Shown: positions 34,734-64,000, counted from the stretch's first letter. The stretch: 64,000 nt of DNA from Patescibacteria group bacterium (GCA_035457005.1 DATICB010000011.1:4098-68097); one strand, 5' to 3'. Notes: generated by a model not told the origin, from the letters alone. Numbers and translations are program-made.

Positions 34734-34737
34734 AATG

Positions 34738-34809
34738 AGCGGGTTATGGGATTCGAACCCACGACACTCTGCTTGGAAAGCAGATGCTCTACCACTGAGC
34801 TAAACCCGC
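34738..34809 (-). tRNA. tRNA-Gly (anticodon TCC)
   Basis: Acceptor gcgggtt/aacccgc, anticodon loop uuUCCaa, discriminator U. Confidence 0.85.
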
Positions 34810-42998: not shown

Positions 42999-43010
42999 AT
43001 TAGGATAGGA

Positions 43011-48649: not shown

Positions 48650-49264
48650 CTATTGCATTGCCGCAGCAAGTCTTTTGGCAACATCGTCCCAATTGACAAT
48701 ATTCCACCAAGCAGCAATATAATCTGCTCGCACATTGTAATATTGCAAATAATAGGCGTGCTCCCACACATCTAGACCCAAAAGGGGTACCATGCCTTGT
48801 GCTAGGGGAGAGTCCTGATTGGGTGTGCTGAGCAATTTTACCTCTCCCTTGTCCCAAACAAGCCACTCCCATCCGCTACCAAATATCTTTGTCGCAGAGG
48901 TACCAAATTGGTCCTGAAATGTTTTGTAATCACCAAATGTGTGTTGTAATTTATCCAGAAGTGTTCCCGATGGCGTTTGTCCATTTCCTTTTTTTGGTGT
49001 CATATTCTCCCAAAACATTGAGTGATTATAATGTCCGCCACCATTATTCCTCACAATAGTCCTGACGTCTTCTGGAATTTTGTCTAGTGATGTAATAATT
49101 TCTTCAATACTTTTATTTTGCCATTCAGGATATTTTTCTAATGCTTTATTTAAATTATCTACGTATGCTTTGTGATGTTTATCATGATGCAGTTGTTGAA
49201 TTTGCTCACTTACATACGGAGCGAGAGCATCGTATGCATAGGGAAGTTTGGGAAGAGTAAACAT
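48650..49264 (-). CDS. sodA: Fe/Mn superoxide dismutase
   Basis: LPKLPYAYDALAPYVS...HHDKHH...DVWEHAYY signatures. Confidence 0.9.
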   Translation of the reverse strand: MFTLPKLPYAYDALAPYVSEQIQQLHHDKHHKAYVDNLNKALEKYPEWQNKSIEEIITSLDKIPEDVRTIVRNNGGGHYNHSMFWENMTPKKGNGQTPSGTLLDKLQHTFGDYKTFQDQFGTSATKIFGSGWEWLVWDKGEVKLLSTPNQDSPLAQGMVPLLGLDVWEHAYYLQYYNVRADYIAAWWNIVNWDDVAKRLAAAMQ

Positions 49265-49376
49265 GTCTTCTCTAGACTAAACCTTTCAGCAATTTCTGTC
49301 AAGAGAAATAATAAATTAAAAGAGTTTAAGTTTTTGAATAAAAAATATTCCATAAACATTGATCACCTAAATTGAG

Positions 49377-49811
49377 ATGAATTGTGCTATACTAGAGAAG
49401 ATGTATAAAGATTTTTACGCGACCGGATTTCTTTATCACCCACTGTCCCAACAAATTCTTCTGCAAAATAATTCTTCTTCTTGGACACTTTTTGGCAATT
49501 CATATAGCGAAGCAGATGATCCGCAAATTATTTTAAAAAATACACTACAACAACTTTTTGATTTGAAGAAAGTTGTCGTTTTACCAATATACACATATAC
49601 TTCCGAAAATAAAAAAAGAATTACCTATGTTGGATATTCCATTGCCAAAACAAAAAAGAATTTTTCACCTAAAGACACGCGATATAAATGGTTTTCTTTT
49701 AAAGAAATTACAAAATTGGCAATCGATCCAGATACCAAACACGACATTATTGTTGGCCAGCGAGTAATAGAAGCCGCAGGAAGAAAAGAAAGAGGAGAGC
49801 ACACTTTCTAG
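49377..49811 (+). CDS. Hypothetical protein
   Basis: 144-aa ORF, no recognised domain. Confidence 0.4.
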   Translation: MNCAILEKMYKDFYATGFLYHPLSQQILLQNNSSSWTLFGNSYSEADDPQIILKNTLQQLFDLKKVVVLPIYTYTSENKKRITYVGYSIAKTKKNFSPKDTRYKWFSFKEITKLAIDPDTKHDIIVGQRVIEAAGRKERGEHTF

Positions 49812-49836
49812 GTATTGCTTCAGAGTTTTCTATATT

Positions 49837-51045
49837 TTATTGGTTAACAATAGTCTCCTCTAGCATTTTTGTAAAAGAAGCAAATTGCATTGTTGAAGTA
49901 AATTTTTCTCTTACTGTTTTTATTCCTGCTTGTGTAAATTTATTTTTAACAGAACTATCATTAAGGAGGATTTCTATTTTCTGAGCTAATATACTTGAAT
50001 CATCTGGCGGAATTAAAAATCCATTATAGAAATCACTAATAATTTCAGGAATACCCCCAACCTTTGTTCCGATGACTGCTAACCCACAACTCATTGCTTC
50101 GATAAAAACTTGTCCAAATGTTTCGTTTTCTGATGCCAAAACAAACATATCAGACCCTTGATAAACATGAGGCATTTCATTAAGTTTGTAAGGTTTTACA
50201 ATTGTTTGTTTTTCTATATTGTGCAGCTTAATATAACCCTGCAACATTTCGTATGCAACATCAAACTCTTTTTTTAAATTATCGGGTGGTTTGCCAATTG
50301 CAATAAGAAGTCGCAATTTAGGATACCGGGGTGATAATTTCGAAAAAGCTTGAATTAAATTAATAAGACCTTTTTCTTGAAGTATATTTTTTTTGCCGCG
50401 AATAATTCTTGTCGCGGTTAAAACAATTTTATTTTCCATCTGTAATCCCAGCTCTTGCTTTAATACATTCTTTTTAGTTTCATCAAAAATAAATTCGCTA
50501 GTATTAACACCTAGATAGTGAGTTGAAAGATAATTAATATCTGCACCTTTCTGAAAAGAATCCCCTGCAACACTTTTACTAACACAGCTAATCATGTCCC
50601 ATTTTAGTTGATTAACCAATTCTGTTTGTAGCTCTGTTGTTTCAAAAGAGTGTAATTGTAACACCAAAGGAATTTTTAACATACTTGTTACCATAGTAAG
50701 GAGCAAACTGTACGCTGCTGGCAAATCTGTATGAAAATTTTCTGCACAAATAATATTAATGGCATTTTTTCGAATAGAATTGGTAACAATTTCAGAAAAA
50801 AGTTTTGCTTTTTCTGAAATTTCCTTTTTTGTTGCGAGTGCACTTCGAGACATAAAAAGACTGTTTGTGTAGAAAATAGTTACACGACCATAATTTTCAG
50901 AATAATCTTCTTTTTCTGTTGGAAGTAAAACAAATAATTTGTGTTTATTTTGAGAGGAAAAATATGCAATGAGATTTGTAATATATCTTTCTATGCCACC
51001 AATACTTTCAAAAGGGGAATTGCGACTAATAAATAAAACGTTCAC
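49837..51045 (-). CDS. Glycosyltransferase family 4 (GT-B)
   Basis: C-terminal E-x7-E motif region SENETFGQVFIEAMSCGLAVIGTKVGGIPEI. Confidence 0.75.
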   Translation of the reverse strand: MNVLFISRNSPFESIGGIERYITNLIAYFSSQNKHKLFVLLPTEKEDYSENYGRVTIFYTNSLFMSRSALATKKEISEKAKLFSEIVTNSIRKNAINIICAENFHTDLPAAYSLLLTMVTSMLKIPLVLQLHSFETTELQTELVNQLKWDMISCVSKSVAGDSFQKGADINYLSTHYLGVNTSEFIFDETKKNVLKQELGLQMENKIVLTATRIIRGKKNILQEKGLINLIQAFSKLSPRYPKLRLLIAIGKPPDNLKKEFDVAYEMLQGYIKLHNIEKQTIVKPYKLNEMPHVYQGSDMFVLASENETFGQVFIEAMSCGLAVIGTKVGGIPEIISDFYNGFLIPPDDSSILAQKIEILLNDSSVKNKFTQAGIKTVREKFTSTMQFASFTKMLEETIVNQ

Positions 51046-52238
51046 GTATTTTTTTCAACAAATGTTATTGCTATTCCTTTCTTATCTGCACGACCTGTTC
51101 TCCCAATACGATGAATATAATCTTCAATTGTTGCGGGCATATCGTAATTAATAACATGAGTAACATTAGGAATATCCAGTCCACGTGACGCAACATCGGT
51201 TGCAAGGAGTACTTGAATTTCTCCATTTTTAAATTGCTTGAGCGCTCGCTGTCTTTGATTTTGGTTTTTATTTCCATGAATTGCTGCAACACGAAAACCT
51301 CTTCGCATCAACTCCGCTGTTAATTTTTGAATGCCCCATTTTGTTCGACCAAAAAGCAAGACTTTTTTAAATTCCTCTTGAGCAAGTAAATCATGCAGTT
51401 TATCTATTTTTTTATATCCTGGCTCTATTTCTATAATTTCTTGTTGCACATTTTCTGCAGTGTCTTGTTGTTTTACCGATGCAGTAACCGGATTAACAAC
51501 AAAACTTTGTAAAATCTCTTGTACCTTACCGTCTATTGTCGCCGAGAAAAAAAGTGACTGCCTATCTATCGGCAATAACGAAATAAAATACTGTATGTCA
51601 CGAATAAATCCAATGTCAACCATTCTATCTGCTTCATCCAAGACAACGTTGTTAAACATCCCCATAGAAATACCTCTTTCCTTAATAATGTCTCGTATTC
51701 TTCCGGGTGTGCCAATAACAAAATGTGGACTTTGTCGCAAATCACCCATCTGTCTTTTCATACTCATACCGCCGATAAGAAGCGTTGAGAAAACACCAAG
51801 TCCTTTGGTAAAAGATTTTAATTCTTCATGAATTTGTACAGCCAACTCCCGCGTCGGTGCAATAATTAAAACCCTTTCTCCCTTATCGTTGTAGACTTTA
51901 TTTACAAGTGGAATAAGAAATGCTGCTGTCTTTCCTGTGCCCGTATTTGCGATACCGATAACATCTCTTCCCAAAAGGATACTTGGAACAGTCTGCAGCT
52001 GAATCGGTGTTGGGTTAGTATACCCTTTGGATAAAATATTATCCAATAATTTTGGAGACAAATGAAAATCAACAAAACTTGTTGCTGGCACCGGCGGCAA
52101 TTCCTCTTGGTACGCTGCTTTTCCTTTTTTAATTACTTCAACCGATGCAATTTTTTCACGAAGCTCTCTCTGAGAAACAGATTGTATTTTTCGCGGCTTT
52201 CCAAAATTCTTATGCTGGTGAAATTTATTTTTATGCAT
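51042..52238 (-). CDS. DEAD-box ATP-dependent RNA helicase
   Basis: Q-motif, ANTGTGKT, VLDEADRM, SAT and HRIGRTGR motifs. Confidence 0.9.
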   Translation of the reverse strand: MHKNKFHQHKNFGKPRKIQSVSQRELREKIASVEVIKKGKAAYQEELPPVPATSFVDFHLSPKLLDNILSKGYTNPTPIQLQTVPSILLGRDVIGIANTGTGKTAAFLIPLVNKVYNDKGERVLIIAPTRELAVQIHEELKSFTKGLGVFSTLLIGGMSMKRQMGDLRQSPHFVIGTPGRIRDIIKERGISMGMFNNVVLDEADRMVDIGFIRDIQYFISLLPIDRQSLFFSATIDGKVQEILQSFVVNPVTASVKQQDTAENVQQEIIEIEPGYKKIDKLHDLLAQEEFKKVLLFGRTKWGIQKLTAELMRRGFRVAAIHGNKNQNQRQRALKQFKNGEIQVLLATDVASRGLDIPNVTHVINYDMPATIEDYIHRIGRTGRADKKGIAITFVEKNT

Positions 52239-52447
52239 ACGGTGTATTACTAAAACTGCTTAAATGAAGTGTATTTGGAGTTAGAAGAAAGATACGAATC
52301 GGTAAAACCTTGTAATAAATATTATCTTTAACTTATCTAATCAAAATTCTATTATTAAGCAGATGTAGTAATGCAATCTGCCGTATATAGTATAGCAGAA
52401 AATAGGTAAAAAAGCAAGAAAACGTGCCTAGTTTGTGGCTATGATAC

Positions 52448-53242
52448 TTATTTCTTTTTCCTCGCTTGCAGGGAGAAAAGAAGAGGTATTTGCGTCTTTT
52501 TATCTTTCAAAACGTATTGTCCATTTTTATTTTTTTTCATAAATCCCGGGAATTGGTTGTACATGGTAAAAGGAAATTCATGAAAAAATTCAATTTCCAA
52601 TCCTGCATCAACAAGTGATGAAATAACGTCCTCAATGGTATAGCTCCATTCATATGTAACCCCCTTTGTTGTATCTTTCCAATTTGTATAACTTCCTTCT
52701 GCATCATCCAAAAATGGCCCTTTATCAAAATAGTCATACTGCATTTTTACCTTTTCATTGAGCATATTGGTGAAAGGATGCAATTCAACAATATAAAAAA
52801 TACCACCAGTTTTAAGAAATTCAGAAATTATTTTTCCAAATTTTTTTATATCAGAAAGCCACAGCAATACTCCATATGACATAAAAATTATATCAAACTT
52901 TTTTTTCAAAACATTTGGTAATGCATAGACATCCGAACAAATAAATTCAGCAGGAATATGCAATTCTTCACTCATTTTTCGAGCAAGTGCAATTGCCTCG
53001 TCTGAGATATCAACACCAGTCACCGATGCACCATTTCTTGCAAGAGACAGACTATCCATACCAAAATGACAAAGTAAATGAAGTACTTCTTTTCCTTTTA
53101 TATTTCCTAATTCTTTTTGCTCTATGACTTGCAAACTGGTTGCGCCTTTTTTAAACTGTGCAACATTATATAAGGAAGACTTCTCGTGAAGAGGAGTAAT
53201 TGCATTCCACCATTTTTTATTTATTTCTGTATAATTTTTCAT
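52448..53242 (-). CDS. Class I SAM-dependent methyltransferase
   Basis: VLHLLCHFGMDSLSLARNGASVTGVDIS motif I region. Confidence 0.65.
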   Translation of the reverse strand: MKNYTEINKKWWNAITPLHEKSSLYNVAQFKKGATSLQVIEQKELGNIKGKEVLHLLCHFGMDSLSLARNGASVTGVDISDEAIALARKMSEELHIPAEFICSDVYALPNVLKKKFDIIFMSYGVLLWLSDIKKFGKIISEFLKTGGIFYIVELHPFTNMLNEKVKMQYDYFDKGPFLDDAEGSYTNWKDTTKGVTYEWSYTIEDVISSLVDAGLEIEFFHEFPFTMYNQFPGFMKKNKNGQYVLKDKKTQIPLLFSLQARKKK

Positions 53243-53269
53243 TATCTTAGTGTAACAAAGAAATGATGA

Positions 53270-53875
53270 TTATAAAAATGTTGTAGCAAATTGGATTGCA
53301 TTAATATATTTTTTATCGGAAATTGCGTGATCTGTTTTTTGAATGGAAAAAAGATATTTCTTTTTTGATGCAATTGCACGAAATGTCTTTTTTGATCTGT
53401 TAATTAAGACTGTCGACTCTTTTTCTCCATACAACATGCAAACACTTTTTGCTTTTATTTTTTTTGCCAATTTATTTGAGTAGAGTGATGCAAATGTTTT
53501 ATGACGAATAATTTGCAAAGCAGAACTATTTTTTGGAAGCGTTTTTGGCAAATCTTCTTTGAAGAAAGGGGACAGTGAACATAAGACAAGACCTCTTACA
53601 GGAATTTTTGTTGCCGCAAGAAACGCTACCAACGCACCATACGAGAATCCGAGAAGATAAACATCTTTTGACAACAAAGAAAGTTTTGCCAATTTTTCAT
53701 TGTATTTTTTAAGAAAAAATGTCGTGTTGTCTGTTATGGTTGATCCTTTCCATGGTACTGCAATTGGGACAACACGAAATCCCTCTGACACGAGCGTTTT
53801 TCGAAGAAGACTGTATCCCTTTTGTCCAATTTTGTGCCTAAATCCCGGAATAAGAAAGACTATTTTCTGCCTCAT
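53270..53875 (-). CDS. Small alpha/beta hydrolase/esterase
   Basis: LGFSYGALVA nucleophile elbow. Confidence 0.55.
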   Translation of the reverse strand: MRQKIVFLIPGFRHKIGQKGYSLLRKTLVSEGFRVVPIAVPWKGSTITDNTTFFLKKYNEKLAKLSLLSKDVYLLGFSYGALVAFLAATKIPVRGLVLCSLSPFFKEDLPKTLPKNSSALQIIRHKTFASLYSNKLAKKIKAKSVCMLYGEKESTVLINRSKKTFRAIASKKKYLFSIQKTDHAISDKKYINAIQFATTFL

Positions 53876-53949
53876 AGCTGGGGGATTATAGCACTTTTGA
53901 GGCTAGAGTAAAAGAGTGGAGTGGTACAGAAAACAGTTTTAAAAGACGT

Positions 53950-54201
53950 TTATAAACCATTAATCAAAGCTTCTTTTTTGCTTTTAGGCAATTGTTTTAT
54001 TTCCCATTCGCGCTTTAAAGCTTCACTTTTTGTTGCACATTCCTCTGTATACACAAGTGCAAAACTATTAAATGCTTTTAAATATTTTGCTGATTCATAA
54101 TTTTTCTTTCTGTGCTGAGTTAGTCTTTTTTCCAAATCATTTGTTTGACCCGTGTAGAGCGTATTTGCAGATGTCCGAAGAATATAGACAGTATATGTCA
54201 T
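53950..54201 (-). CDS. GIY-YIG nuclease-family mini-protein
   Basis: TYTVYILRTSANTLYTGQTNDLEKRLTQH core. Confidence 0.7.
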   Translation of the reverse strand: MTYTVYILRTSANTLYTGQTNDLEKRLTQHRKKNYESAKYLKAFNSFALVYTEECATKSEALKREWEIKQLPKSKKEALINGL

Positions 54202-54235
54202 ATACTCAGTATACAACTACTACAACCACAATTGA

Positions 54236-54826
54236 CTAGCTCACAAGAAGATACAAAGCAAAGACTACCATGCTAAAATCTTCAACCAAAGTCACCCAAG
54301 TAAGCGGAACTTTAAGAAATGTTCCTAGGCAAACACATTGAAATTTTTCATGCTTTAAGATTTTTATTGCTACACCAATGCCGCTAAATCCCATGACAAT
54401 AATTTCCGCAAAAAGAATTTGTTTTGTGTATATATCTAAAATCATTGTAAATGCAAAAAATAATTCAAGAAATGGATAGATATATCCATACCAATAGACA
54501 CGCTTTGCAAGTAAATCGTATGTTGCATACCCTTCTGCAAAACCCCGTATATCTGTCAGCTTAAACCCTGAGAAAATCAAGAAAAATCCGATCATGAAAT
54601 ATCTAACAACAGTATGAATATTAAAATTCGTTATAAATGAAATGAGTAGAGATGTGGTAAAAATAAGACCAATAATAATCAAAAGAGGAGTGTAACTTGA
54701 TTTCTCGCTTGTTACTTTGTTTGATTTTTTCTCTAACTCACTTTGCAAAACAAGTTTCATTCCACATAAAGGACATGTGCCAGGACTATCTTGTCTTATT
54801 TGTGGATGCATTGGACACGCGTACAT
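54236..54826 (-). CDS. Fusion of an N-terminal heavy-metal-binding domain (CPMHP...CPLCGM) with a MauE/DoxX-like 4-TM domain
   Basis: MYACPMHPQIRQDSPGTCPLCGMKL metal-binding motif, then four TM helices. Confidence 0.5.
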   Translation of the reverse strand: MYACPMHPQIRQDSPGTCPLCGMKLVLQSELEKKSNKVTSEKSSYTPLLIIIGLIFTTSLLISFITNFNIHTVVRYFMIGFFLIFSGFKLTDIRGFAEGYATYDLLAKRVYWYGYIYPFLELFFAFTMILDIYTKQILFAEIIVMGFSGIGVAIKILKHEKFQCVCLGTFLKVPLTWVTLVEDFSMVVFALYLLVS

Positions 54827-54834
54827 AGGTAATC

Positions 54835-55428
54835 TTAATCCACCATTGACCCCGTCTTCACTTCTCCTGCACGTTTGTAATTGGCAAAGATAACTCCTTT
54901 GGGAGTAACATGATGCTCTATCAACTCAAATGCAGCTGGAATTGCACCATCTTGAAATAATTTCTTTCCTTTCCCTAAAGTGAGTGGATGGATTTTTAAC
55001 CACAACTCGTCTACTAAATCATTTTTTAAAAGTGTTTGAACCAGATTCCCGCTTCCATACACTTGCAAATTAGACCCATTTGTTTGTTTTAGTTTTTTAA
55101 TATCTTCAACATTTTTCAAAACTACCGTGTTTTCCCATGCAGGGTTCTTAAGAGTTGTAGAGACAACATATTTAGTCACTTTGTTAATACTTGGCCAAAA
55201 TTTCGTGTGGGTTGGCCAATAAGCAGAAAAAATATCGTATGTTTTTCTTCCCAACAAAAGATCCGAAGGCTCCATTTGTTTCGCCATTAATTTGCCCGCT
55301 TTATCGTCAAAATAGGGAAATTGCCACCCGCCAAATTTGAAATCATTTGATGTGTCTTCTTCAGAACCACCAGGAGCTTGCATAACACCATCTAGCGTAA
55401 TAAATTCTAAAACAATAACCTTTCTCAC
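54835..55428 (-). CDS. Dihydrofolate-reductase-like (RibD C-terminal domain family) protein
   Basis: VIVLEFITLDGVMQAPGG...LLLGRKTYD...VYGSGNLVQTLL. Confidence 0.65.
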   Translation of the reverse strand: MRKVIVLEFITLDGVMQAPGGSEEDTSNDFKFGGWQFPYFDDKAGKLMAKQMEPSDLLLGRKTYDIFSAYWPTHTKFWPSINKVTKYVVSTTLKNPAWENTVVLKNVEDIKKLKQTNGSNLQVYGSGNLVQTLLKNDLVDELWLKIHPLTLGKGKKLFQDGAIPAAFELIEHHVTPKGVIFANYKRAGEVKTGSMVD

Positions 55429-55492
55429 ACATTCATTGTATCACGAAGAACAAGGGGGCAAAAATCTATACTGGCTGAATAAAAAGTTACAT

Positions 55493-55966
55493 TCAAGGAT
55501 TAAGTAGAAGAAGAGAGAAATTAAGGATTGTTGCAAAGCTTACCCAGAGAAGGTATGGGATAAGAAGACATCCTGCAGTTTTGGAAAGTTTATAGAACGT
55601 AAAAAGTGTTATAGCAATACTAATAAGCAAAAAGAGAATATCTATAAACCCCAATAAGGGATTGCGTAAACCGAAAAAGAATATTGACCAAAGAAAGTTT
55701 AAAAAAAGCTGTATAAAAAAGTAGGCCAGTGCCTTTTTTACTTTTTTATTCTTCGCACCTTTTTGCCAAATGATAAATACTGCAATTCCCATGAAAAAAT
55801 ACAGGAGTGTCCAAACTGGACCAAAGATCCAGTTTGGAGGAGAAAAGAATGGTTTATGAAGATGGGCATACCACGCAGGAATAGCTGAAATAGTAAATGG
55901 AGTAGCAATTATTCCCGTTAATTCACAACCCATAACGCAAATAAGAAACTTTTGAATATCTTTCAT
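55493..55966 (-). CDS. tspO: TspO/MBR tryptophan-rich sensory protein
   Basis: Five TM helices; PSWFPPNWIFGPVWTLLY-type motif. Confidence 0.75.
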   Translation of the reverse strand: MKDIQKFLICVMGCELTGIIATPFTISAIPAWYAHLHKPFFSPPNWIFGPVWTLLYFFMGIAVFIIWQKGAKNKKVKKALAYFFIQLFLNFLWSIFFFGLRNPLLGFIDILFLLISIAITLFTFYKLSKTAGCLLIPYLLWVSFATILNFSLLLLNP

Positions 55967-56072
55967 ATTTTTAGTATGAGAAACTACTGCTGTTGTGTCA
56001 ATGAGCAGAGGAGAAAGATAAACGGTCCAAAAGGCAGACTAGAGATATTCTGCTTAATTCATTTTTTCTGTG

Positions 56073-56143
56073 CTGGAAGGCCTGGATTCGAACCAGAATA
56101 AACAGATCCAAAGTCTGTTGTCCTACCATTAGACGACCTTCCA
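56073..56143 (-). tRNA. tRNA-Gln (anticodon TTG), U1:A72, G73
   Basis: Acceptor uggaagg/ccuucca, anticodon loop cuUUGga, T-arm ctgg-ttcgaat-ccag. Confidence 0.8.
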
Positions 56144-56147
56144 ATAT

Positions 56148-56390
56148 TTAATCTTTTAACAACACCTTAAGTTTATTACCACCTTTATATGATTTCAATT
56201 CTATTTCCCTTAATCGCGCTTTTTTATAATTTTCAAACTCTTCTGTATAAACGAGAGAAAATGGCTTTCTCTTTTTCGTAATTGAAACTCCACCCTTATT
56301 GTGTTTCTTTAAACGGTTCTGAATATCTTTAGTTATTCCGATATAATAACCATTGTCTAATTTGCTTTGGATTACATAAACCCAAATCAT
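56148..56390 (-). CDS. GIY-YIG nuclease-family mini-protein, 4 nt from the tRNA-Gln 5' end
   Basis: IWVYVIQSKLDNGYYIGITKDIQNRLKKHN core. Confidence 0.7.
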   Translation of the reverse strand: MIWVYVIQSKLDNGYYIGITKDIQNRLKKHNKGGVSITKKRKPFSLVYTEEFENYKKARLREIELKSYKGGNKLKVLLKD

Positions 56391-56397
56391 ACAAAAA

Positions 56398-56470
56398 AGT
56401 CTGTTGTCCTATTTACTCCGCTTAGCGGAGCCATTACCCCGCTCAGCGGGGCGAGGACGACCTTCCAATA
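56398..56470 (-). repeat. Degenerate copy of the 5' half of tRNA-Gln; the D-loop is replaced by a 45-nt insert with two GC hairpins
   Basis: aagtctgttgtcct...gacgaccttccaata matches 56111-56146; insert ctccgcttagcggag / ccccgctcagcgggg. Confidence 0.55.
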
Positions 56471-56539
56471 GAATAAATTGAACAGATATCTTGTGAATTT
56501 TACAACCTAGACTATCTTTCCAACGTGGCATTATTATAC

Positions 56540-57004
56540 CTAATTCGAGGCATTCTTGCTAGGTGTTGGGCGCTGATACAACCCAATAAGCTGTGATGTT
56601 GCCAGAATATGTCCCTGCATTGCAAATGCAAGCGTGTTTTTTGTATAGACATCTTCTGTTGGCAACATAATATCCAGTGCATAGAGAGTAAAAATATATC
56701 TATGGACGCCACTGGGAGGACAGGCAGCAACATACCCTGGCTTATTCAGGCTGGTAATACCTAATACTGCATTTTCCGGCCAAGTTCCTTCGGTAATTTC
56801 TGCTGTATTTGGTAGCATGTTGTAGACAATCCAATGGATAAAGGTTTTACTTGGCGCATCCGGATCCTCAACCACCAATGCTAGACTTTTGGTGTCTGTT
56901 GTTATACCAGAAAAGGCGAGTGGGGGATTAATCCCTTTTCCATCGCACGTGTAGAGTGCAGGAAGCATGGTATTGTTTTCAAAAACAGGGGAGAGAATTT
57001 GCAT
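56540..57004 (-). CDS. YbhB/YbcL-family PEBP (Raf-kinase-inhibitor-like) protein
   Basis: DPDAPS...HWIVYNM...GVHRYIFTLYALD motifs. Confidence 0.75.
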   Translation of the reverse strand: MQILSPVFENNTMLPALYTCDGKGINPPLAFSGITTDTKSLALVVEDPDAPSKTFIHWIVYNMLPNTAEITEGTWPENAVLGITSLNKPGYVAACPPSGVHRYIFTLYALDIMLPTEDVYTKNTLAFAMQGHILATSQLIGLYQRPTPSKNASN

Positions 57005-57067
57005 ACTGTCATTATAATAAGGATATTTCCAAACAGCAACTCACTGCTTTTTTTGATTATTCTGACG

Positions 57068-57658
57068 CTACGTTTTAACTCCTAAAATAATTGTCCAGAA
57101 GAAAGGAATAGAAATAGCTTGTATTTTTATTTTTTCACTCACAAATTTCTGAAACCCCAAAAAAGACCAATGATTAATATGTTCGATATCATTACCAAGT
57201 CGGGACCAATTTTTTCCCCTTAGTAGTTGTGCCAACATAAAAAATGGTTCATTTGGGACAGAAAGAAGTATATATTTTTTACTAACCCTAACGAGTTCTG
57301 CTAATGCCTTTTTTGGATCTTCCATGTGCTCCAAAACTTCGGTGCACAGTACAAGGTCAAATGCACTGTCTTTGTACGGGAGTTCGTAAATACTGCCTTG
57401 CTTTATAAGCAAATCAGGATACTGCTTTTTGCCAAGTTTTATTGCTTTTTCCTGGTATTCAATGCCTTCCAATTTTTTACCAATGTGTGCTTCTTGCAGC
57501 TTGTGTAATGTAAATCCTTCACCACATCCAACATCCAGGATTGAACCATTGGGAACAAGTTTGAGCAAACGAAAAACATGTTTGTAGAAATTATCCAGGA
57601 GAAATCGTTGGATTGGATTGCGATGGGTATGTTTGCGAAAATTATCGGTTACTTCCAT
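57068..57658 (-). CDS. Class I SAM-dependent methyltransferase
   Basis: ILDVGCGEGF motif I. Confidence 0.7.
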   Translation of the reverse strand: MEVTDNFRKHTHRNPIQRFLLDNFYKHVFRLLKLVPNGSILDVGCGEGFTLHKLQEAHIGKKLEGIEYQEKAIKLGKKQYPDLLIKQGSIYELPYKDSAFDLVLCTEVLEHMEDPKKALAELVRVSKKYILLSVPNEPFFMLAQLLRGKNWSRLGNDIEHINHWSFLGFQKFVSEKIKIQAISIPFFWTIILGVKT

Positions 57659-58051
57659 AAAACATCATTCATTATAGCATGAATGTGTCAATAAATACGC
57701 ATTACATATGCATTGATATACAAAGTCTTTTGCGATGTAATTTCTGTCATGGAACGTGCTTTACCAAAACGCTGCGCTGAGCCGCAAATACAGCTAGCAT
57801 TCCAAACGCAATCAGAAAAACCTGCAATACTCCTGACAGGTACCTTGAGTAATTGGATTGATAATCAGTTGGCAAGAGATAGAAGGTGTGCGCGACATGG
57901 AAATTGCGTAAATGCATGTCTTGGGAGAAATAGCACTATACAATCTTGTAATCATTGTTTAAAAAGGAGCTGCTAGGCAGATACTAATCTTCATTGTACT
58001 CCACTCATCTTGAGCCACAAAAGATCTTAAGGAAGTTAATTAAAAACTTAG

Positions 58052-58082
58052 TGAGCGGGCGATGGGAATCGGACCCACTACC
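58052..58082 (-). other. tRNA-like 3' fragment (T-arm-like gggtccgattccc plus acceptor-like cgcccgc-t), no complete cloverleaf found
   Basis: Hand-folded. No matching 5' acceptor strand or anticodon arm within 100 nt. Confidence 0.25.
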
Positions 58083-58358
58083 TTCTCCTTGAAAGTTGCG
58101 GGTTGATCTCCAACATGACCTTTCTTAGCTTCATAATAACAACAGGGGGTAGGTGTGTAAATAAGTGGATATTAGTAAGTACAGTATCAATCCATACCAA
58201 AATTTACTCGAAGCTAAAAACCTTGGAAAATACTGGAAATGAAACTCTTTTTATATGTGCGGATTTATTCAACTCTTTTTTTCATTTTGAAGCTAGACTA
58301 CATAGAAAAATGTCAACTGAATTGACTTTTTTTACTGTGACGGAAAACTCAACTATTC

Positions 58359-58616
58359 TCAACTAATTTCCTCATGTCGGAAGTACACATACATGTCCAA
58401 CAATTCTTCTTTCGAGTAGCACAAAGATTCATTGAAAAACGTGGAAAGCTCTCCTTGCTTGTCTAATGCCCTTCCATAACTTATCCGAAGACATGCTGTC
58501 ATTGATTCTGTCCAAATTAACGTGCGTAAATGTGTGGTAAATTCACGAGACTTATGAGTTGATACCTTACTAACTGTCTTTCCATTCTCTAAAATTTTGA
58601 GCGTGTAATTTTTCAT
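58359..58616 (-). CDS. Hypothetical small protein
   Basis: 85-aa ORF in the AT-rich terminal region. Confidence 0.25.
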   Translation of the reverse strand: MKNYTLKILENGKTVSKVSTHKSREFTTHLRTLIWTESMTACLRISYGRALDKQGELSTFFNESLCYSKEELLDMYVYFRHEEIS

Positions 58617-58761
58617 ATTTGTATCGTTTTAAAATCCACCATTTTCCACCTTTTTCTTATGTCATATATGTCATAGTTCTTACCCCACTTAGTAAAACTT
58701 AGCTATGTTACCTATATAACGAGTACATATATGTTTAATTTCATATAAGACAGAAAGCATA

Positions 58762-59046
58762 TTAGTCTTCATTTATTACCTCCTGTATTTGTTGGGTGTT
58801 GAACTTGTTGAGTATTTCTTTTTGTATTTCTTCCCAATCTGCTTCGTTATCAGTTTTGAATAACGGTCGCCAAAATCTTCCTCCAGCTAAATAACTTGGA
58901 GGAGTGACATATTCTTTATGTGTTTCAGGATCTTGAATAACTTTGAATCCTTTTAGAAGAAACCCTTCAAAATGCACATCTGCTCGTGCAACAACTTTCC
59001 CCCCTCCTGCTTTTACGATTGTTACTTCAATAATTTTCATATTCAT
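58762..59046 (-). CDS. spoVG: SpoVG-family protein
   Basis: MNMKIIEVTIVKAGGGKVVARADVHFEGFLLKGFKVIQDPETHKEYVTPPS matches the SpoVG N-terminal domain. Confidence 0.75.
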   Translation of the reverse strand: MNMKIIEVTIVKAGGGKVVARADVHFEGFLLKGFKVIQDPETHKEYVTPPSYLAGGRFWRPLFKTDNEADWEEIQKEILNKFNTQQIQEVINED

Positions 59047-59060
59047 GCCTAAAAACTTGA

Positions 59061-59306
59061 TTAAACTTGATTTTTCTCGTACATCCGGTCTTTGACCAAT
59101 TTTGAATTAAGAAGCACTATGCGGGGATCGAGGCGTAATTTCCCTTGGAAGTAGTTTTCGGACTGCTGTAAAATCTCTGGTGTACTTTCAAATTCAAAGA
59201 TGAACCTGCGAGAGTCAGATTTATTAACTTTTACTAACTGGAAGCCTAACGCACAAAGTGTAATTGTTTGGTGGAAATCCGAGGTCTCGAAAATCTTCAT
59301 GTTCAT
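59061..59306 (-). CDS. Hypothetical small protein; start placed at MNMKIFETS
   Basis: ORF with the same ATGAAYATGAAAAT start context as its two neighbours. Confidence 0.4.
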   Translation of the reverse strand: MNMKIFETSDFHQTITLCALGFQLVKVNKSDSRRFIFEFESTPEILQQSENYFQGKLRLDPRIVLLNSKLVKDRMYEKNQV

Positions 59307-59389
59307 ACGAAAAGAATAGTTGAAATTCGTTTGGTTGTATAAAACGGTCAACTGTTAAACACCTGATTAACAGTAATGTGTTTAAATCT

Positions 59390-60139
59390 TTATTTAGAAG
59401 AGGAAATTAAGGCTAAAATCGCTGGAACAGTTTTGCTCCAGTTTTTGTGAAGTGTACGCTTAATATCTTTCTTGAATCTACTGATTAAGGAGCCTATTAT
59501 TTCATAGTCTGGACTAAATGAAAGTTTTCCCTTATATCTTTTTTCGACTTTTTCTGCAATCTCTACAAGACTAGCACCTTGTATTTGTAGCTTAAGCATG
59601 TATTTTTTAACCTCAATGCCCTCAATCTTAATTCTGGGACTTTCTGATAATGTTTCTAGGTATTTTCCTATTCGTTTGTGGTCTTCACGTATAAATTTCT
59701 GAACATTCCTTAAAGACATTTTTTCTCTAATGATAATCTGGACTTCTCCATCTCTAAAAATTGTTTCAATGGGTAGAAGGTCTAAGTAGGGATAAAAGGA
59801 TGTATTGTCAATAATAATACTATGGAAAAAATTTTCCCAACCATTAGGTAGCATAAATAAACTTTTAAGTAAAACGCTGAATTGGTCTATTAGGTCACTT
59901 TGTTTTGATAAAAAATCAATGCCTTTTTCCTTGTACTGTTTTCTTTCCCATAACTGATACTCGACAATACTAGGAAATCCTTCTTCAGGAAAGCCAAGAG
60001 ATTCACGTATTATGGCAAGCAATTTTATAAACTCCTCATCGACCTCTAGCAGATTTATAAACTTTTCACTATCTCTTGTGAATGTATCAGGCCTTGGATA
60101 AGTGGAAGAGCCTTCGTGTACCTTAATTTTCATATTCAT
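59390..60139 (-). CDS. Hypothetical protein (249 aa), starts MNMKIKV
   Basis: Long ORF, no recognised domain. Confidence 0.45.
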   Translation of the reverse strand: MNMKIKVHEGSSTYPRPDTFTRDSEKFINLLEVDEEFIKLLAIIRESLGFPEEGFPSIVEYQLWERKQYKEKGIDFLSKQSDLIDQFSVLLKSLFMLPNGWENFFHSIIIDNTSFYPYLDLLPIETIFRDGEVQIIIREKMSLRNVQKFIREDHKRIGKYLETLSESPRIKIEGIEVKKYMLKLQIQGASLVEIAEKVEKRYKGKLSFSPDYEIIGSLISRFKKDIKRTLHKNWSKTVPAILALISSSK

Positions 60140-60296
60140 TCAGCTTGAATATATATCTTTTCCGAGTTTTCCGCCACTAATAAAACTACAAATCTGACAG
60201 GCATAAAAAAGTTAACAATAGTTGACAAACTGGACAACATAAAAAGGGGTTGAGACTAATATCGCCGCTTTAGGATATAATTACAGCATAAGCTAA

Positions 60297-61655
60297 ATGA
60301 AACTGTTTACTAGAGTAAAAATAGGATTTAAAGAAATAAGGTCTCCTTTTTTTGTGGGTATAGGTGCGATTATTCTTGGTGCATTTATTTATTTTGTTCA
60401 ACTTAAATTTATGCTCAATATTACCCATGGATTTGAATGGCTAATCTTTGCAATAGGTATTCTTTTCGCTTTCGCATCTTTTTTTGTTTTTATCAATAAA
60501 ATTGTACCATTAGTAAAACTTCTTATTAACTTCGCTGTAGGTTTTGTAGTAAGTATTTTTGTCTTTCTAGCCACTATTCCATTCCTTATTTCCACAGCAA
60601 ACGTTACACAGGAGAGACTTACCGCAATCGGAAATGCAAACATGTATCGAATTGTTTTGTTTTACGGATTTTTCTTAGTAAGCGTTGCACTTTTATCTTA
60701 TTTCTTTAAAAGAATTAGATTTTTTGTGATAGCTATTTTTGTTTATTGGGTGTTAGGAACTGGATTGGTCTTTGGATTAACTCATACTAATCCATTTTTT
60801 AAAAATACTAATGACACAATAGCCACCACCCATAATGAAAAATTTCCTGTAGAACAACTTGCTCTAAAAAATGTTCAATGGCAAAATGGAATTTTGTCGG
60901 GAGATGTACTAAATAAAAGCAAGGATAAAGTTTTTAACATAAAGATTCAACTAACTGTAAGTAAAACAAGAAATAAATGGGAAATTGGAACTCAAGATTT
61001 TGCTTTAATTCCCTTTATTATCAATCCAAATGACACTTTTCATTTTGATGAAAGCATTAAGCCATCTCAAGTAAATCCATGGTGGACTACGCAAGTTATT
61101 TCTGCCGAGTATTACACAGGTCAACCAATCGTTTACCCCACATATCCTGTAACACCAACAGTACATATTGCCAATAACTATCAACAACCTACTAATAATG
61201 ATGAACAACCATGGGGAATAGCAAAACAGATTGATGAACATACTTGGACAATGAAGGTTGGTCAAGATGATCGAATGGCTACAGCTCAGGAAATATATGA
61301 TGCCCTCAACGCTTACAGACAAAGAAATGGAGTAGGCAGACTAGGCTGGAATGATCATTTGGCATCTTATGCATTAACAAGAGCAGCATATTTTGAACAA
61401 AGAGGTGGCCTAGATGGACACGCAGGTTTTATTGAATACACGAAAAGCATTGATAATTTGAAATCTTTGGGATTTTGGGGAGTTGGGGAAAACTCTGCCT
61501 ATGGGTACAGAATGTTAGGCGTACATTTAATTGAATGGGTGTATGCAGGAGATAAACCTCATGATGATAACCAAAAGGACCCAAAATGGACCAGTGTTGG
61601 AATAGGAGTGAGCGGCAATAGTAACGACCTTATCTTTGGAACTAACGGGATGTAA
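60297..61655 (+). CDS. Membrane protein with an N-terminal 6-TM domain and a C-terminal CAP/SCP/PR-1-like domain
   Basis: TAQEIYDALNAYRQRNGVGRLGWNDHLASYALTRAAY...HAGF...GENSAYG matches the CAP-domain signature. Confidence 0.55.
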   Translation: MKLFTRVKIGFKEIRSPFFVGIGAIILGAFIYFVQLKFMLNITHGFEWLIFAIGILFAFASFFVFINKIVPLVKLLINFAVGFVVSIFVFLATIPFLISTANVTQERLTAIGNANMYRIVLFYGFFLVSVALLSYFFKRIRFFVIAIFVYWVLGTGLVFGLTHTNPFFKNTNDTIATTHNEKFPVEQLALKNVQWQNGILSGDVLNKSKDKVFNIKIQLTVSKTRNKWEIGTQDFALIPFIINPNDTFHFDESIKPSQVNPWWTTQVISAEYYTGQPIVYPTYPVTPTVHIANNYQQPTNNDEQPWGIAKQIDEHTWTMKVGQDDRMATAQEIYDALNAYRQRNGVGRLGWNDHLASYALTRAAYFEQRGGLDGHAGFIEYTKSIDNLKSLGFWGVGENSAYGYRMLGVHLIEWVYAGDKPHDDNQKDPKWTSVGIGVSGNSNDLIFGTNGM

Positions 61656-61786
61656 AGCTTAAAAAAGTTAATAATTTCTAACCTTATAGTTTTTGTCTTA
61701 GCTTCAGATGTATTTTCACAATTTTTCTCAGGCACGATTTCACGTCGCATACCAATGATTGTACGACGCTGTAAAAATTTCTAGAT

Positions 61787-63412
61787 TTGATATACTACAG
61801 CAATATGTCTATCAATAAACAAAGCTATGAGAATTTATTAGAAAACCTAAGAGTAGGCAATTCAATAGCGGAGAAAGATTTACTACTAGAAGCAGCAAGG
61901 GTCGAAACCCCTGTTTTCTTAGGTGTATTAAACGATGACTACGACATAATTCTTGGTAGAAAAGGAGCTGGAAAAACAGCAATTTTTAGACTTATTGGAA
62001 GCATGTCTCCATTTCTATTAGGTAAAAACATAGTAGTTCTAAGTGGGGTCAACAGTACAGGTGAATCAATTTTTACCCAATACAAAGAAAAGTTCAAAGA
62101 ATTCTCACAAGAGGAATTTGAGAATTTTTGGAAATTATATATCTTATCTTTAATATACAATCAATTCATTAAAGATCCCTTCTTTAGTGATAAACTAACA
62201 GCTTTTGAAAAAGAAATTGGCGATTTTAAAAATGAATGTTCAAAAGCAGGGGTTCCTAATATACCTGCTCAATTATCAAGAGAGCAGATTCTTGAATGGG
62301 TAATGAATTTATTTAGAAATATAAAGGGAATTAAAAAAGTGAAACTTCCGTTAGCAGTAACAGTGCCTAATCAAGCCACAATTTTTTCGGCTTCACCTGA
62401 AATAGAATTTAAATCAAAAGAAATGGATCAACTGGAACAACAAGCGATCTATGTCCACAATATTGGAAAAGCTCTAGCAAATTTGTTAAAAAACAGTGGT
62501 TTCAAACTTTGGATTATTCTAGATCGATTAGATGAAGTTTTTCAGAGGTATTCAAAAATAGAATTTTGCGGGTTAAGAGGATTACTGCTGGCGTATAAAA
62601 GTTTCGACATTGATGAAAGTAGTGACATTTTTAGAATTAAACTCTTCTTAAGAGATGATATTAAAAGTTTTTTAACAGATAGCACTATTTACAAAAAACA
62701 TTTTAAAAATGAAATTCCTGCACTCCCTGCAGCTACACATATATTCGCAAAAGAATCGCCCACACTTAGTTGGAATGAAGACGAAATTCAACAATTAATC
62801 CTTAATAGATTAATTTTAAACAATAAACTAATAAGAGATTATTTAGGTATAACTGATAAATACTCAATGACAAATCCCTCCAAACTTGACGAAGTTCTAA
62901 AAAATGAATTAAGAGATAAACATGTTAGATTAGAATACTGGAATAAAATATTTCCCAAAAAAATTTCATCCTCTGATTCACTTAAATGGATTTTTACAAG
63001 ACTAAAAGACTCAAATGACGTTGTTACACCTCGAAGTGTAATTGATATGCTTGAAGGAGCTATTAGCTATCTAAAAAGAAAAATTCAAACTAATTTCGAA
63101 GACTCAGTCACGATTTTCCCTGTGGACTCAATAATTGAAGGTCTGAAAACTGCTTCAAAATATAAACTAGAAAAAGATGTCTATAATGAATTTCCAAAAG
63201 AACAGGAAGCTATAAAAAAATTAAGTAGCTTTGGAAAGTATAAATTGAAAGGCAAGGACTTAGAAAAACTATTTGGAAATAAGTGGAGAGAAATAGTCGA
63301 GGACTTAAAAAGAATTGGGATAATAAAATACATCATATACTCAAAAGAGTATAGTATTGCTTATATTTTTAGACCTGCAATGGGTATTTCATACAAAAAC
63401 TATACAGGGTAA
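61787..63412 (+). CDS. P-loop NTPase (Walker A GRKGAGKT, Walker B LWIILDRLDE) with a large C-terminal region of unknown function
   Basis: Motifs read directly; no precise family assignable without a search. Confidence 0.55.
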   Translation: MIYYSNMSINKQSYENLLENLRVGNSIAEKDLLLEAARVETPVFLGVLNDDYDIILGRKGAGKTAIFRLIGSMSPFLLGKNIVVLSGVNSTGESIFTQYKEKFKEFSQEEFENFWKLYILSLIYNQFIKDPFFSDKLTAFEKEIGDFKNECSKAGVPNIPAQLSREQILEWVMNLFRNIKGIKKVKLPLAVTVPNQATIFSASPEIEFKSKEMDQLEQQAIYVHNIGKALANLLKNSGFKLWIILDRLDEVFQRYSKIEFCGLRGLLLAYKSFDIDESSDIFRIKLFLRDDIKSFLTDSTIYKKHFKNEIPALPAATHIFAKESPTLSWNEDEIQQLILNRLILNNKLIRDYLGITDKYSMTNPSKLDEVLKNELRDKHVRLEYWNKIFPKKISSSDSLKWIFTRLKDSNDVVTPRSVIDMLEGAISYLKRKIQTNFEDSVTIFPVDSIIEGLKTASKYKLEKDVYNEFPKEQEAIKKLSSFGKYKLKGKDLEKLFGNKWREIVEDLKRIGIIKYIIYSKEYSIAYIFRPAMGISYKNYTG

Positions 63413-63418
63413 TTTTTA

Positions 63419-64000
63419 TCAATATTCAAATTTAATTAGTAATTCTTTTTGCTCCAATTTTTTTTCAATATTAACTGAAATCCTAGAATCATATTTAAAA
63501 TAATCGTTTAAAATTTTTTGGAAATTTTCAAGCACTTGTTCTGGTGATAAACCATTAAGTACGATTGATTGCTTTCCGTTTAAGATTAAGGATAGATCCA
63601 CAACATTTAAGTGTGTGTACGTCTTGTCTGTAATCTCAACGCTGCTATGTCTCAACAGTCGAGAAACCATCTGAATTGGCACGCCATTCTTTACCAGACT
63701 TGAAGCGAATATATGTCGAAGTGAATGATTTGTGAGCTTTACAGGCATTCCTAGAGCCTTTGCACCACGTTGTAGAACTTCGTTGCATGTTTTTTCAGTG
63801 ACTTCAAAGACTCTATCTCTTTCTAGCCTTGTCTTGAGTTCCTCAATCATATCTTTTGGTAAGGGGAGAATCTCTCGATTACCGCCCTTACTGATAACCC
63901 AAAAGGTTGGTGGATTGTCGAATAAATTAAGATCGGAACCCTTTAGTGTAATTGCTTCGTTTATTCTTAATCCTGTACGCAGAATAAAGCGGAGACATGC
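63419..64000 (-). CDS. Tyrosine site-specific recombinase/integrase, 5'-partial (the ORF runs off the window end)
   Basis: C-terminal catalytic region HSLRHIFAS...LLRHSSVEITDKTYTHL. Upstream in-frame translation (GLRINEAITLKGSDL...KGGNREILPLP) continues to nt 64000. Confidence 0.8.
   Translation of the reverse strand, partial: ACLRFILRTGLRINEAITLKGSDLNLFDNPPTFWVISKGGNREILPLPKDMIEELKTRLERDRVFEVTEKTCNEVLQRGAKALGMPVKLTNHSLRHIFASSLVKNGVPIQMVSRLLRHSSVEITDKTYTHLNVVDLSLILNGKQSIVLNGLSPEQVLENFQKILNDYFKYDSRISVNIEKKLEQKELLIKFEY

Follow-up and report, generated by a model that had tools for sequence, protein, structure and literature searches.

Organization of the locus

The window, the whole 64,000-nucleotide stretch of Patescibacteria DNA analyzed here, ends in a compact segment whose inner edge lies at 58052 and whose last gene, an integrase, runs off the end. 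The features of this segment are as follows:

58052..58091, minus strand: distal att site (attR), the displaced 3' part of tRNA-Gly(GCC), 40 nt (from identity with L058 and the end of homology with L005)
58092..58200, minus strand: element arm adjoining the att core (P arm), non-coding (from a three-way alignment with L005 and L004)
58359..58616, minus strand: 85-aa protein, last gene of a four-gene module (open reading frame; L005 orthologue)
58762..59046, minus strand: divergent protein of modeled SpoVG fold, 94 aa (from Pfam matches of homologues and an AF2 fold)
59061..59306, minus strand: DUF5659 protein, 81 aa from the ATG at 59306 (PF18903)
59390..60139, minus strand: 249-aa orphan protein, first gene of the module (rare family, AF2 model)
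60297..61655, plus strand: membrane protein, 452 aa, with hydrophobic segments toward the N terminus and a CAP/SCP domain at the C terminus (PF00188)
61805..63412, plus strand: Sll1717-family P-loop ATPase, 535 aa from ATG, with an alternative TTG start at 61787 (NF047389)
63419..64000, minus strand: tyrosine integrase, C-terminal 193 codons of a gene that continues to ~64432 (337 aa in total; PF00589)

The original prediction drew attention to the AT-richness of this segment. It does have the lowest GC content of all 6-kb windows (33.5%, against 38.7% for the rest of the window), but as a marker this was overstated. The regions at 37–43 kb (33.8%) and 49–55 kb (33.5%) are comparable, and because the latter holds conserved core genes, syntenic with a relative, the low GC is real yet not diagnostic. 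The tetranucleotide deviation, proposed as a further check, is the second highest among the 6-kb windows. Promoter and terminator scans of the segment gave nothing above shuffles, and a repeat scan within it found only 16-nt gene starts in common.

The integrase belongs to a Patescibacteria family

The gene at the window's end had been read as a partial tyrosine recombinase, and this is confirmed by a PF00589 match (E=6.6e-21) and by the full-length protein of 337 aa (HSD98597.1; P0001), in which the catalytic set R156/K182/H236/R239/H262/Y272 is complete. The Logan contigs from SRR22388078 are L001 and L003. The first extends the integrase gene by 426 nt to ~64426, ending two codons before the start, and also encodes the exact ATPase product. 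The integrase is a member of a Patescibacteria family for which full-text literature searches found no description. Its architecture is Xer-like and its nearest solved structure by sequence is XerD 1A0P (E=3.8e-17), while its scores fall under the NCBIfam Xer cut-offs (XerA, 111.9 versus 220; XerD, 93.1 versus 329.6; XerC, 87.6 versus 335).

A tRNA-Gly(GCC) 3' part forms the probable distal att site

The minus strand at 58052–58082 corresponds to a T-arm and 3' acceptor strand and resembles the 3' end of the window's own tRNA-Gly(UCC). As predicted, a tRNA-like fragment is present here and no complete tRNA is found by ARAGORN or Rfam, even at E<=1. The extent first assigned to it was too short, however: the 39 nt at 58053–58091 are 100% identical to the corresponding 3' part of tRNA-Gly(GCC) in the related locus L058, where the gene is intact, and the fragment therefore reaches 58091. 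The attR span (sequence CAAGGAGAAGGTAGTGGGTCCGATTCCCATCGCCCGCTCA) starts at anticodon base C36, takes in the T-arm and the 3' strand of the acceptor stem, and ends with the discriminator; it differs at 1 nt from the att copies of L004 and L005. Its 25-nt core pattern has a single occurrence in the window, where 100 shuffles give an expectation of 0.00.

Other readings of the fragment were rejected. Against its being an entire or unusual RNA, neither a tRNA nor a tmRNA was detected at E<=1 by ARAGORN or Rfam, and by eye there is no matching 5' acceptor strand upstream. The window's tRNA-Gly(UCC) at 34737–34809 was discarded as the partner because it shows 8 mismatches over 40 nt and lies on the wrong side, such that the fragment would precede the gene. 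A C/T polymorphism in the T-loop was considered as a marker of the element-derived att copy, but its pattern is inconsistent, with C in the proximal copy in L005 and L013, in the distal copy in L004, and in both copies in L018.

The ∼100 nt of the P arm beside the core are largely invariant in the three-way alignment of the window, L005, and L004, the three elements nearest to one another, and blastn of window positions 58165–58064 against the end of L004 gives 84% identity. This arm may hold putative binding sites for the integrase or accessory proteins.

Related loci hold small islands at tRNA-Gly(GCC)

Integrases 42%–86% identical to that of the window lie, at 15 of 22 loci, 30–180 nt downstream of an intact tRNA-Gly(GCC) and share its strand. 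Five loci have a further, direct copy of the tRNA 3' part 6.9–10.9 kb downstream, bounding segments of 7.0 kb (L005), 10.9 kb (L013), 8.2 kb (L016), 8.0 kb (L018), and 6.9 kb (L020); the L004 element, of ∼10 kb, is bounded likewise. The sole gene common to all eight elements compared is the integrase. Recognizable cargo of the sister islands includes IetA/IetS (IetAS), an OLD/GajA-like ATPase, a NucC-like nuclease, a restriction-modification system, and a zeta toxin. Proteins of the L013 and L016 elements look replication-initiator-like by eye.

The closest complete relative, L005, carries the same four-gene module ahead of its distal repeat. Homology between the window and L005 (82% over 1.26 kb) stops exactly at 58052, the outer edge of the repeat and the outer boundary of the island. 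On the chromosomal side, the flank at 49–57.6 kb is syntenic with L060, and the stretch at 57659–58051 shows no similarity to any comparison locus. Conservation of the region in all relatives, named as a refuting case for the original prediction, is not borne out in L058. This locus shares the methyltransferase-PEBP flank with the window and contains tRNA-Gly(GCC), but the integrase and all of the island's other genes are missing; past the tRNA lie other genes and an att scar of 24 nt. Integrase-less scars occur at the same site in L058 (9551–9574), L060 (131–148), L005 (8554–8594), and L016 (18528–18545).

The comparison of related loci supports the original reading of integrase, cargo, and partial tRNA att remnant as an integrated island. 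The segment from 58052 to the window end, together with ∼490 nt beyond it, is very probably a ∼6.4-kb genomic island in the 3' part of tRNA-Gly(GCC) of a Microgenomates-type member of the Patescibacteria, and its intact tRNA-Gly(GCC) is predicted to lie ∼490 nt past the window end.

We considered whether the region could instead be native chromosome, with the recombinase acting as a Xer-type dimer resolvase and the tRNA-like 40-mer being a chance match or an unrelated remnant. The recombinase does find its best NCBIfam and PDB likeness in XerA and XerD, shares with XerC, XerD, and XerA its length and its N-terminal SAM-like and catalytic domains, and lies in a genome whose core regions also reach low GC. 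In contrast to those proteins, its XerA and XerD scores are far under the cut-offs, it is tied to a tRNA and att repeats rather than to dif, and a relative lacks it at the equivalent locus. The conserved linkage to tRNA-Gly(GCC), the direct repeats flanking variable cargo, the different occupancy of the locus in L058, and the chance expectation of 0 for the fragment make a native origin extremely improbable.

The integrase-adjoining slot carries a P-loop ATPase and a CAP-domain membrane protein

The gene next to the integrase encodes the predicted Walker A/B NTPase, with both motifs present (GRKGAGKT and LWIILDRLD) and a score of 143.7 bits for NCBIfam NF047389 (“P-loop ATPase, Sll1717 family”; cut-off 75). 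It matches two PHROG families, both of unknown function, including phrog_14159 (E=1.9e-21), and its residues 205–474 give a partial PADLOC match to the candidate PDC-M28C (E=8.6e-09). The only homologue from a scan of genome contigs, 59% identical, is in a Daviesbacteria genome and has no integrase nearby. The CAP-domain membrane protein was likewise correctly anticipated: residues 335–444 match PF00188 at 30 bits (gathering cut-off 21.1), and several hydrophobic segments fall within residues 13–163. The L004 element also encodes CAP-domain proteins. By eye, an S26-peptidase protein of L005 has a CAP domain at its C terminus.

As in other integrase-borne defense islands and hotspots, the sister islands carry anti-phage systems in the slot adjoining the integrase, and the corresponding slot of the window holds a standalone P-loop ATPase. 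In contrast to those islands, the window's cargo matches no complete known system: PADLOC recognized no complete catalogued defense system, no island protein other than the ATPase gave a match, and the PDC-M28C match is partial. To our knowledge, CAP-domain membrane proteins are not a known defense component. A defense role for the ATPase is suggested only by the partial match to a PADLOC candidate and by gene position. Because known anti-phage systems are found in sister islands that have related integrases and use this site, the window's cargo most likely serves, by analogy, a defense or competition function; on the same analogy, the label “defense island” that had been offered for the window is plausible.

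An orphan four-gene module precedes the distal repeat

Three genes of the module had been grouped by a shared MNMKI start. All three starts are present, at 59046, 59306, and 60139, although that at 59306 is an internal ATG of the open reading frame as listed. Since homologues and the public gene call begin at the second Met (MKI), the “MN” may be untranslated and the true start may be MKI.

The 249-aa protein belongs to a rare family, with 50 cluster representatives at E<=1e-3 among 1.84 billion. Its AF2 model (pLDDT 93) has no match in the PDB or BFVD better than E=0.1; partial matches are to LuxR, Pax, resolvase-HTH, and small-terminase HTH domains. The model weakly suggests that the C-terminal helices are HTH-like within an overall fold that lacks a known match. 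The DUF5659 protein matches PF18903 with E=1.2e-06 and 28.7 bits (cut-off 23.6), and the elements of L004 and L005 encode homologues.

The presence of SpoVG had also been predicted. The window copy itself lies below Pfam detection, with no sequence match in Pfam (E<=0.01), PHROG, NCBIfam, or the PDB. However, 33 of 40 homologues (49%–89% identical) match PF04026, with a best E of 8.8e-09, and the nine best Foldseek hits of the AlphaFold (AF2) model (pLDDT 90.8) are all SpoVG crystal structures, with TM scores of 0.75–0.82 against 2IA9, 2I9X, and 2I9Z. On the model and its homologues, the 94-aa protein is thus a divergent member of the SpoVG fold and a probable nucleic-acid-binding regulator. 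It differs from the SpoVG of Bacillus and Staphylococcus in its low identity (∼20% to solved SpoVGs) and in its setting, being encoded next to DUF5659 on a mobile island and not at the spoVG locus of the chromosome. The 85-aa protein matches nothing in Pfam, PHROGs, PADLOC, or NCBIfam; its orthologue occupies the same position in L005 (6532–6789).

Phage affinity and present-day mobility

The suggestion that the segment might be a prophage is not supported, as structural and replication genes were looked for and none were found. We consider a prophage remnant or helper-dependent phage satellite, in place of a plain genomic island, to be quite improbable. The small size of the segment and its combination of an integrase with small DNA-binding proteins are reminiscent of minimal satellites, and both the ATPase matches to PHROG families and the replication-initiator-like proteins seen by eye in L013 and L016 would fit such an origin. 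Nevertheless, capsid, portal, terminase, tail, lysis, and primase families are absent from all island genes (PHROGs, Pfam), and helper-hijacking or packaging genes and primase or replicase genes were found in none of Pfam, PHROGs, and NCBIfam. IMG/VR contains no relative of the integrase, whose nearest phage counterparts are at most 27% identical, and neither the 249-aa nor the SpoVG-like protein has a tblastn match in 50,697 phage records.

Returning to the genomic island, we asked whether it still moves. No excisionase, replication, or transfer genes were recognized among its genes in Pfam, PHROGs, PADLOC, or NCBIfam. A search of IMG/VR with attP-junction and att-core patterns did not turn up a free circular attP form, and current mobility is accordingly unproven. 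Together with the integrase-less scars in L058, L060, L005, and L016, which indicate that decay happens at this site, these results would suit a fossil island that integrated as proposed but can no longer excise or move and has become fixed in the chromosome of the lineage. We regard this as possible though somewhat unlikely: the integrase open reading frame is full length with every catalytic residue kept, over 39 nt the att copy matches a functional tRNA 3' part at every position, and cargo differs between elements whose integrases are 80%–86% identical, which implies recent turnover.

A model for integration and its wider setting

Islands targeted to tRNA genes by tyrosine integrases are textbook elements, and the mechanism that we propose is accordingly unsurprising. 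From the anatomy of the island and the known working of such integrases, we infer that the 337-aa integrase would have recombined the attP of the element, carrying a copy of the last ∼40 nt of the tRNA, with the chromosomal tRNA gene (attB). This would have regenerated the tRNA gene beside the integrase gene, at a position predicted to be just outside the window, and left the original tRNA 3' part displaced at the opposite end of the island (58052–58091). The Sll1717-family ATPase and the CAP-domain membrane protein would then occupy a variable cargo slot adjoining the integrase, and the 249-aa protein (with its possible HTH), DUF5659, the SpoVG-fold protein, and the 85-aa protein would form a small backbone module, with a putative regulatory or excision-related role.

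As described for Islander (PMC4383910), island ends are marked by a regenerated tRNA and a displaced tRNA fragment. The islands described here resemble Islander-class tRNA/tmRNA islands with P4-type and similar integrases in that the integrase adjoins the regenerated tRNA gene (here seen in relatives), the distal end bears the displaced tRNA 3' fragment as a direct repeat (the full pair again being seen in relatives), the identity block extends from the anticodon loop to the 3' end, and variable cargo accompanies a small backbone. They differ in their Patescibacteria (CPR) host, in their very small size (6.4–11 kb), and in their integrase, which is short (337 aa) and Xer-like with a conserved ∼60-aa C-terminal tail past the catalytic Tyr. 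In addition, no excisionase or AlpA-type regulator is recognized here.

A broader proposal can be offered only tentatively, as we consider it rather unlikely to hold in all its parts. The integrase and conserved att arms might define a previously undescribed family of miniature (6–11 kb) integrative elements that target tRNA-Gly(GCC) specifically in Microgenomates-type Patescibacteria and shuttle defense and surface-protein cargo among ultra-small episymbionts. The orphan module of the window's sub-lineage (HTH-like 249-aa protein, DUF5659, SpoVG-fold protein, and 85-aa protein) might be a new backbone for excision or regulation, or for exploiting a helper in a satellite-like manner, and integration might install an unusual C55 T-loop allele in the host tRNA-Gly.

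Mobile elements of Patescibacteria/CPR are little documented. The loci compared here make one tRNA-Gly(GCC) site a hotspot at which related integrases bring different small cargoes, recognized anti-phage systems included. The site offers a handle on gene flow and phage defense in bacteria that are not yet cultivable, and its defined pairing of att site and integrase is a candidate genetic tool for them.

Gene Content of the Island

The features that the original prediction had listed for 58052-64000 are present, and ORF calling and family scans give the genes below.

Protein-coding genes of the island
58359-58616, minus: 85-aa ORF (ORF scan)
58762-59046, minus: 94-aa ORF, SpoVG-like (ORF scan)
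59061-59306, minus: DUF5659 protein (PF18903, 28.7 bits)
59390-60139, minus: 249-aa ORF (ORF scan)
60297-61655, plus: 452-aa protein, C-terminal CAP domain (PF00188, 30 bits)
61805-63412, plus: P-loop ATPase (NCBIfam "P-loop ATPase, Sll1717 family", 143.7 bits; cut-off 75 bits)
63419-64000, minus: tyrosine recombinase, C-terminal 193 codons (PF00589, E=6.6e-21)

Hydrophobic segments lie within residues 13-163 of the CAP protein. In the ATPase, GRKGAGKT forms the Walker A motif and LWIILDRLD the Walker B motif. A Logan contig (L001, from SRR22388078) encoding an identical ATPase adds 426 nt to the integrase, ending two codons before its start. The full-length protein (337 aa; NCBI HSD98597.1) has a complete catalytic set: R156, K182, H236, R239, H262, and Y272. 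Its architecture is Xer-like and XerD (1A0P) is its closest solved structure by sequence, but it scores far under the XerA, XerC, and XerD cut-offs.

The four minus-strand genes next to the tRNA fragment form a module. The SpoVG-like protein has no sequence match in Pfam, PHROG, NCBIfam, or the PDB. However, 33 of 40 homologs match PF04026, and the top nine PDB matches of its confident AlphaFold model (pLDDT 90.8) are all SpoVG crystal structures (TM ≤0.82). The window copy thus has the SpoVG fold but is divergent. The 249-aa protein is a member of a rare family (50 of 1.84 billion cluster representatives). Its model, which is confident (pLDDT 93), has no significant match in the PDB or BFVD, and by structure comparison the predicted C-terminal helices appear to resemble HTH domains weakly and in part. 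Conceivably, the small proteins of this module control excision or help it along.

The three genes predicted to begin MNMKI do so, opening at 59046, 59306, and 60139 with ATGAA(T/C)ATGAA(A/G)AT; in their homologs the second Met is the start. The motif ATGAATATGAA lies at the starts of these successive genes (59036-59046, 59296-59306, and 60129-60139), all of which lack an obvious Shine-Dalgarno sequence. In relatives (L004 73-90, L005 52-69, and L009; L-numbers denote fetched loci) it is doubled, ATGAATATGAATATGATC, 20-40 nt 5′ of the integrase start. The motif may serve as a common operator or as a signal of the start region.

The Inner Boundary Is a tRNA-Gly(GCC) 3′ Part

Between 58052 and 58140, neither ARAGORN nor Rfam detects a complete tRNA or tmRNA, even at E≤1. 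The fragment there reads CAAGGAGAAGGTAGTGGGTCCGATTCCCATCGCCCGCTCA on the minus strand, and a 25-nt core of it has a single occurrence in the window versus 0.00 expected.

Parts of the tRNA fragment
T-stem, minus: GTGGG/CCCAT
T-loop, minus: TCCGATT
3′ acceptor strand, minus: CGCCCGC
Discriminator, minus: T

It is similar to the 3′ end of the window's tRNA-Gly(UCC), from which it differs at 8 of 40 positions, and 39 nt of it match exactly the 3′ part of an intact tRNA-Gly(GCC) in the related genome L058. The tRNA-like fragment predicted at 58052-58082 is present, and no complete tRNA accompanies it. The tRNA-derived block begins with the third anticodon base and includes the discriminator, so that it ends at 58091 rather than 58082.

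The T-loop TCCGATT has a C where U55 is nearly universal. The same loop is found in the ARAGORN-called intact tRNA-Gly(GCC) of five loci (L011, L013, L014, L018, and L058, 7100-7173) and in the partial tRNA 3′ ends with which the L005 and L060 contigs begin. The remaining loci have the canonical TTCGATT, and GGTTCGA is present in each of the window's eight complete tRNAs. The distribution of the C55 allele between att copies near the integrase and distal ones follows no consistent pattern.

Related Elements Occupy the Same Site

Integrase homologs (42-86% identity) were placed on contigs at 22 loci. At 15 of these, tRNA-Gly(GCC), or its 3′ part at the contig start, lies 30-180 nt 5′ of the integrase on the same strand. 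The tRNA 3′ part is repeated downstream in five loci, the repeat always starting at CAAGGAG in the anticodon loop.

Repeat-bounded segments
L005: 7.0 kb
L013: 10.9 kb
L016: 8.2 kb
L018: 8.0 kb
L020: 6.9 kb

The L004 contig starts within the tRNA and finishes in the distal arm and repeat, with ∼10 kb between. The closest complete relative is L005, whose integrase is 80% identical and whose module (245-aa, DUF5659, SpoVG-like, and 85-aa proteins) has the same order, directly ahead of the distal repeat. The alignment of the window with L005 (82%) runs from 59306 to exactly 58052, and none extends beyond. A non-coding arm of ∼100 nt adjoining the repeat is kept in the window, L005, and L004. In an all-against-all comparison of eight elements, the integrase is the sole gene common to all.

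The chromosomal side of the boundary is marked by a methyltransferase (57068-57658), a widespread core gene. In L058, the methyltransferase (81% identical) is paired with PEBP and preceded, in order, by an intact tRNA-Gly(GCC), a PLD-family protein, 381-aa and 73-aa proteins, a 24-nt att scar, and a 99-aa ORF; integrase, ATPase, CAP protein, and module are all absent from this locus. The L060 contig, with an 84% identical methyltransferase, begins in the tRNA-Gly T-arm just 118 nt ahead of that gene, and a further 18-nt scar (131-148) abuts its start codon. The tRNA-Gly(GCC)-methyltransferase interval is therefore a variable integration hotspot, of which the window's seven genes are no conserved part. 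The original prediction had named synteny and conservation in all relatives as evidence against it; on this point, the comparison comes out in favor of the island.

The 3′ end of tRNA-Gly also recurs in additional short copies (L005 8554-8594, L016 18528-18545, L058 9551-9574, and L060 131-148), past the main distal repeat or beside the methyltransferase start; these scars reflect repeated integration or decay at the hotspot. A 461-aa gene in L005 is flanked by two such copies. The 392-nt gap between methyltransferase and att fragment (57659-58051) has no convincing ORF, no Rfam match, and no similarity to the L058/L060 flank or other fetched loci. Further out, an 80-aa GIY-YIG protein (56072-56390, minus) lies immediately upstream of tRNA-Gln(TTG); the pair recurs in L060, and in L058 the tRNA-Gln is inverted, with no GIY-YIG gene called.

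Composition Is Not Diagnostic

As predicted, the island is AT-rich: its GC content (33.5% versus 38.7% for the rest of the window) is the lowest among all 6-kb windows, and its tetranucleotide deviation ranks second, after 24-30 kb. However, 37-43 kb (∼33.8% GC) and 49-55 kb (33.5% GC; RibD_C, DEAD-box helicase, glycosyltransferase, and methyltransferase genes, which L060 has in the same order) are equally AT-rich. Most genes of 49000-57600 recur in similar order in L060, so low GC is no marker of foreign DNA in this genome, and we downgrade it accordingly. The island's composition is consistent with a foreign origin, without being diagnostic.

The conserved genes of 49000-57600 are glycosyltransferase, DEAD-box helicase, methyltransferase, RibD_C, TspO, PEBP, and methyltransferase. 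The 24-30 kb stretch owes its tetranucleotide deviation and AT skew, the strongest of the window, to a 1965-aa protein of SpaA-type prealbumin-fold repeats (26775-32672, plus; PF19403, E=1.6e-107). The 37000-43000 stretch holds three large plus-strand ORFs, two (398 and 631 aa) without a Pfam match and the third a YfhO/PTPS-related membrane protein.

A Minimal Island with Candidate Defence Cargo

The original prediction had allowed for a prophage. In Pfam, PHROGs, and NCBIfam, none of the island proteins matches a family of phage structural, packaging, or lysis proteins, or of primases or relaxases; IMG/VR contains neither a relative of the integrase nor the att patterns; and a tblastn search of 50,697 phage records yields nothing for the 249-aa or the SpoVG-like protein. 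The prophage reading is not supported, and the most fitting description of the element is a minimal integrative genomic island.

In sister islands, recognized defence or addiction cargo occupies the slot adjoining the integrase.

Cargo of sister islands
L016, 14413-17717: IetA and IetS (269 and 155 bits)
L018, 3145-4989: OLD/GajA/HEC-01A-like ATPase
L020, 12969-13709: NucC/PD-DExK nuclease
L006, 12679-15243: N6-methyltransferase, specificity subunit, and resolvase (restriction-modification)
L004: Zeta toxin and CAP protein

By its position in this slot, the gene for the Sll1717-family ATPase is a candidate for a defence function, and its product partially matches the PADLOC candidate PDC-M28C (E=8.6e-09). 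A 59% identical homolog is present in a Daviesbacteria genome (L002 10001-11599), where sugar genes of the GDP-mannose dehydratase type flank it on one side and glycosyltransferases on the other. A protein with a CAP domain is encoded 3 kb upstream of it, and no integrase or tRNA is found within 10 kb.

An integrated island is supported by its anatomy, in which integrase, cargo, and module are followed by the arm and the displaced tRNA 3′ part, and by the linkage to tRNA-Gly(GCC) across the integrase family, together with the repeats and the variable occupancy of the locus. The established behavior of tRNA-targeting tyrosine integrases (for example, the Islander description, PMC4383910) suggests a mechanism. 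The element's attP, carrying the 3′ ∼40 nt of the tRNA, would recombine with the chromosomal tRNA gene, regenerating the tRNA beside the integrase and moving the original 3′ part to 58052-58091. The island may still be mobile. It is an element of a well-known class, here in an under-studied phylum.
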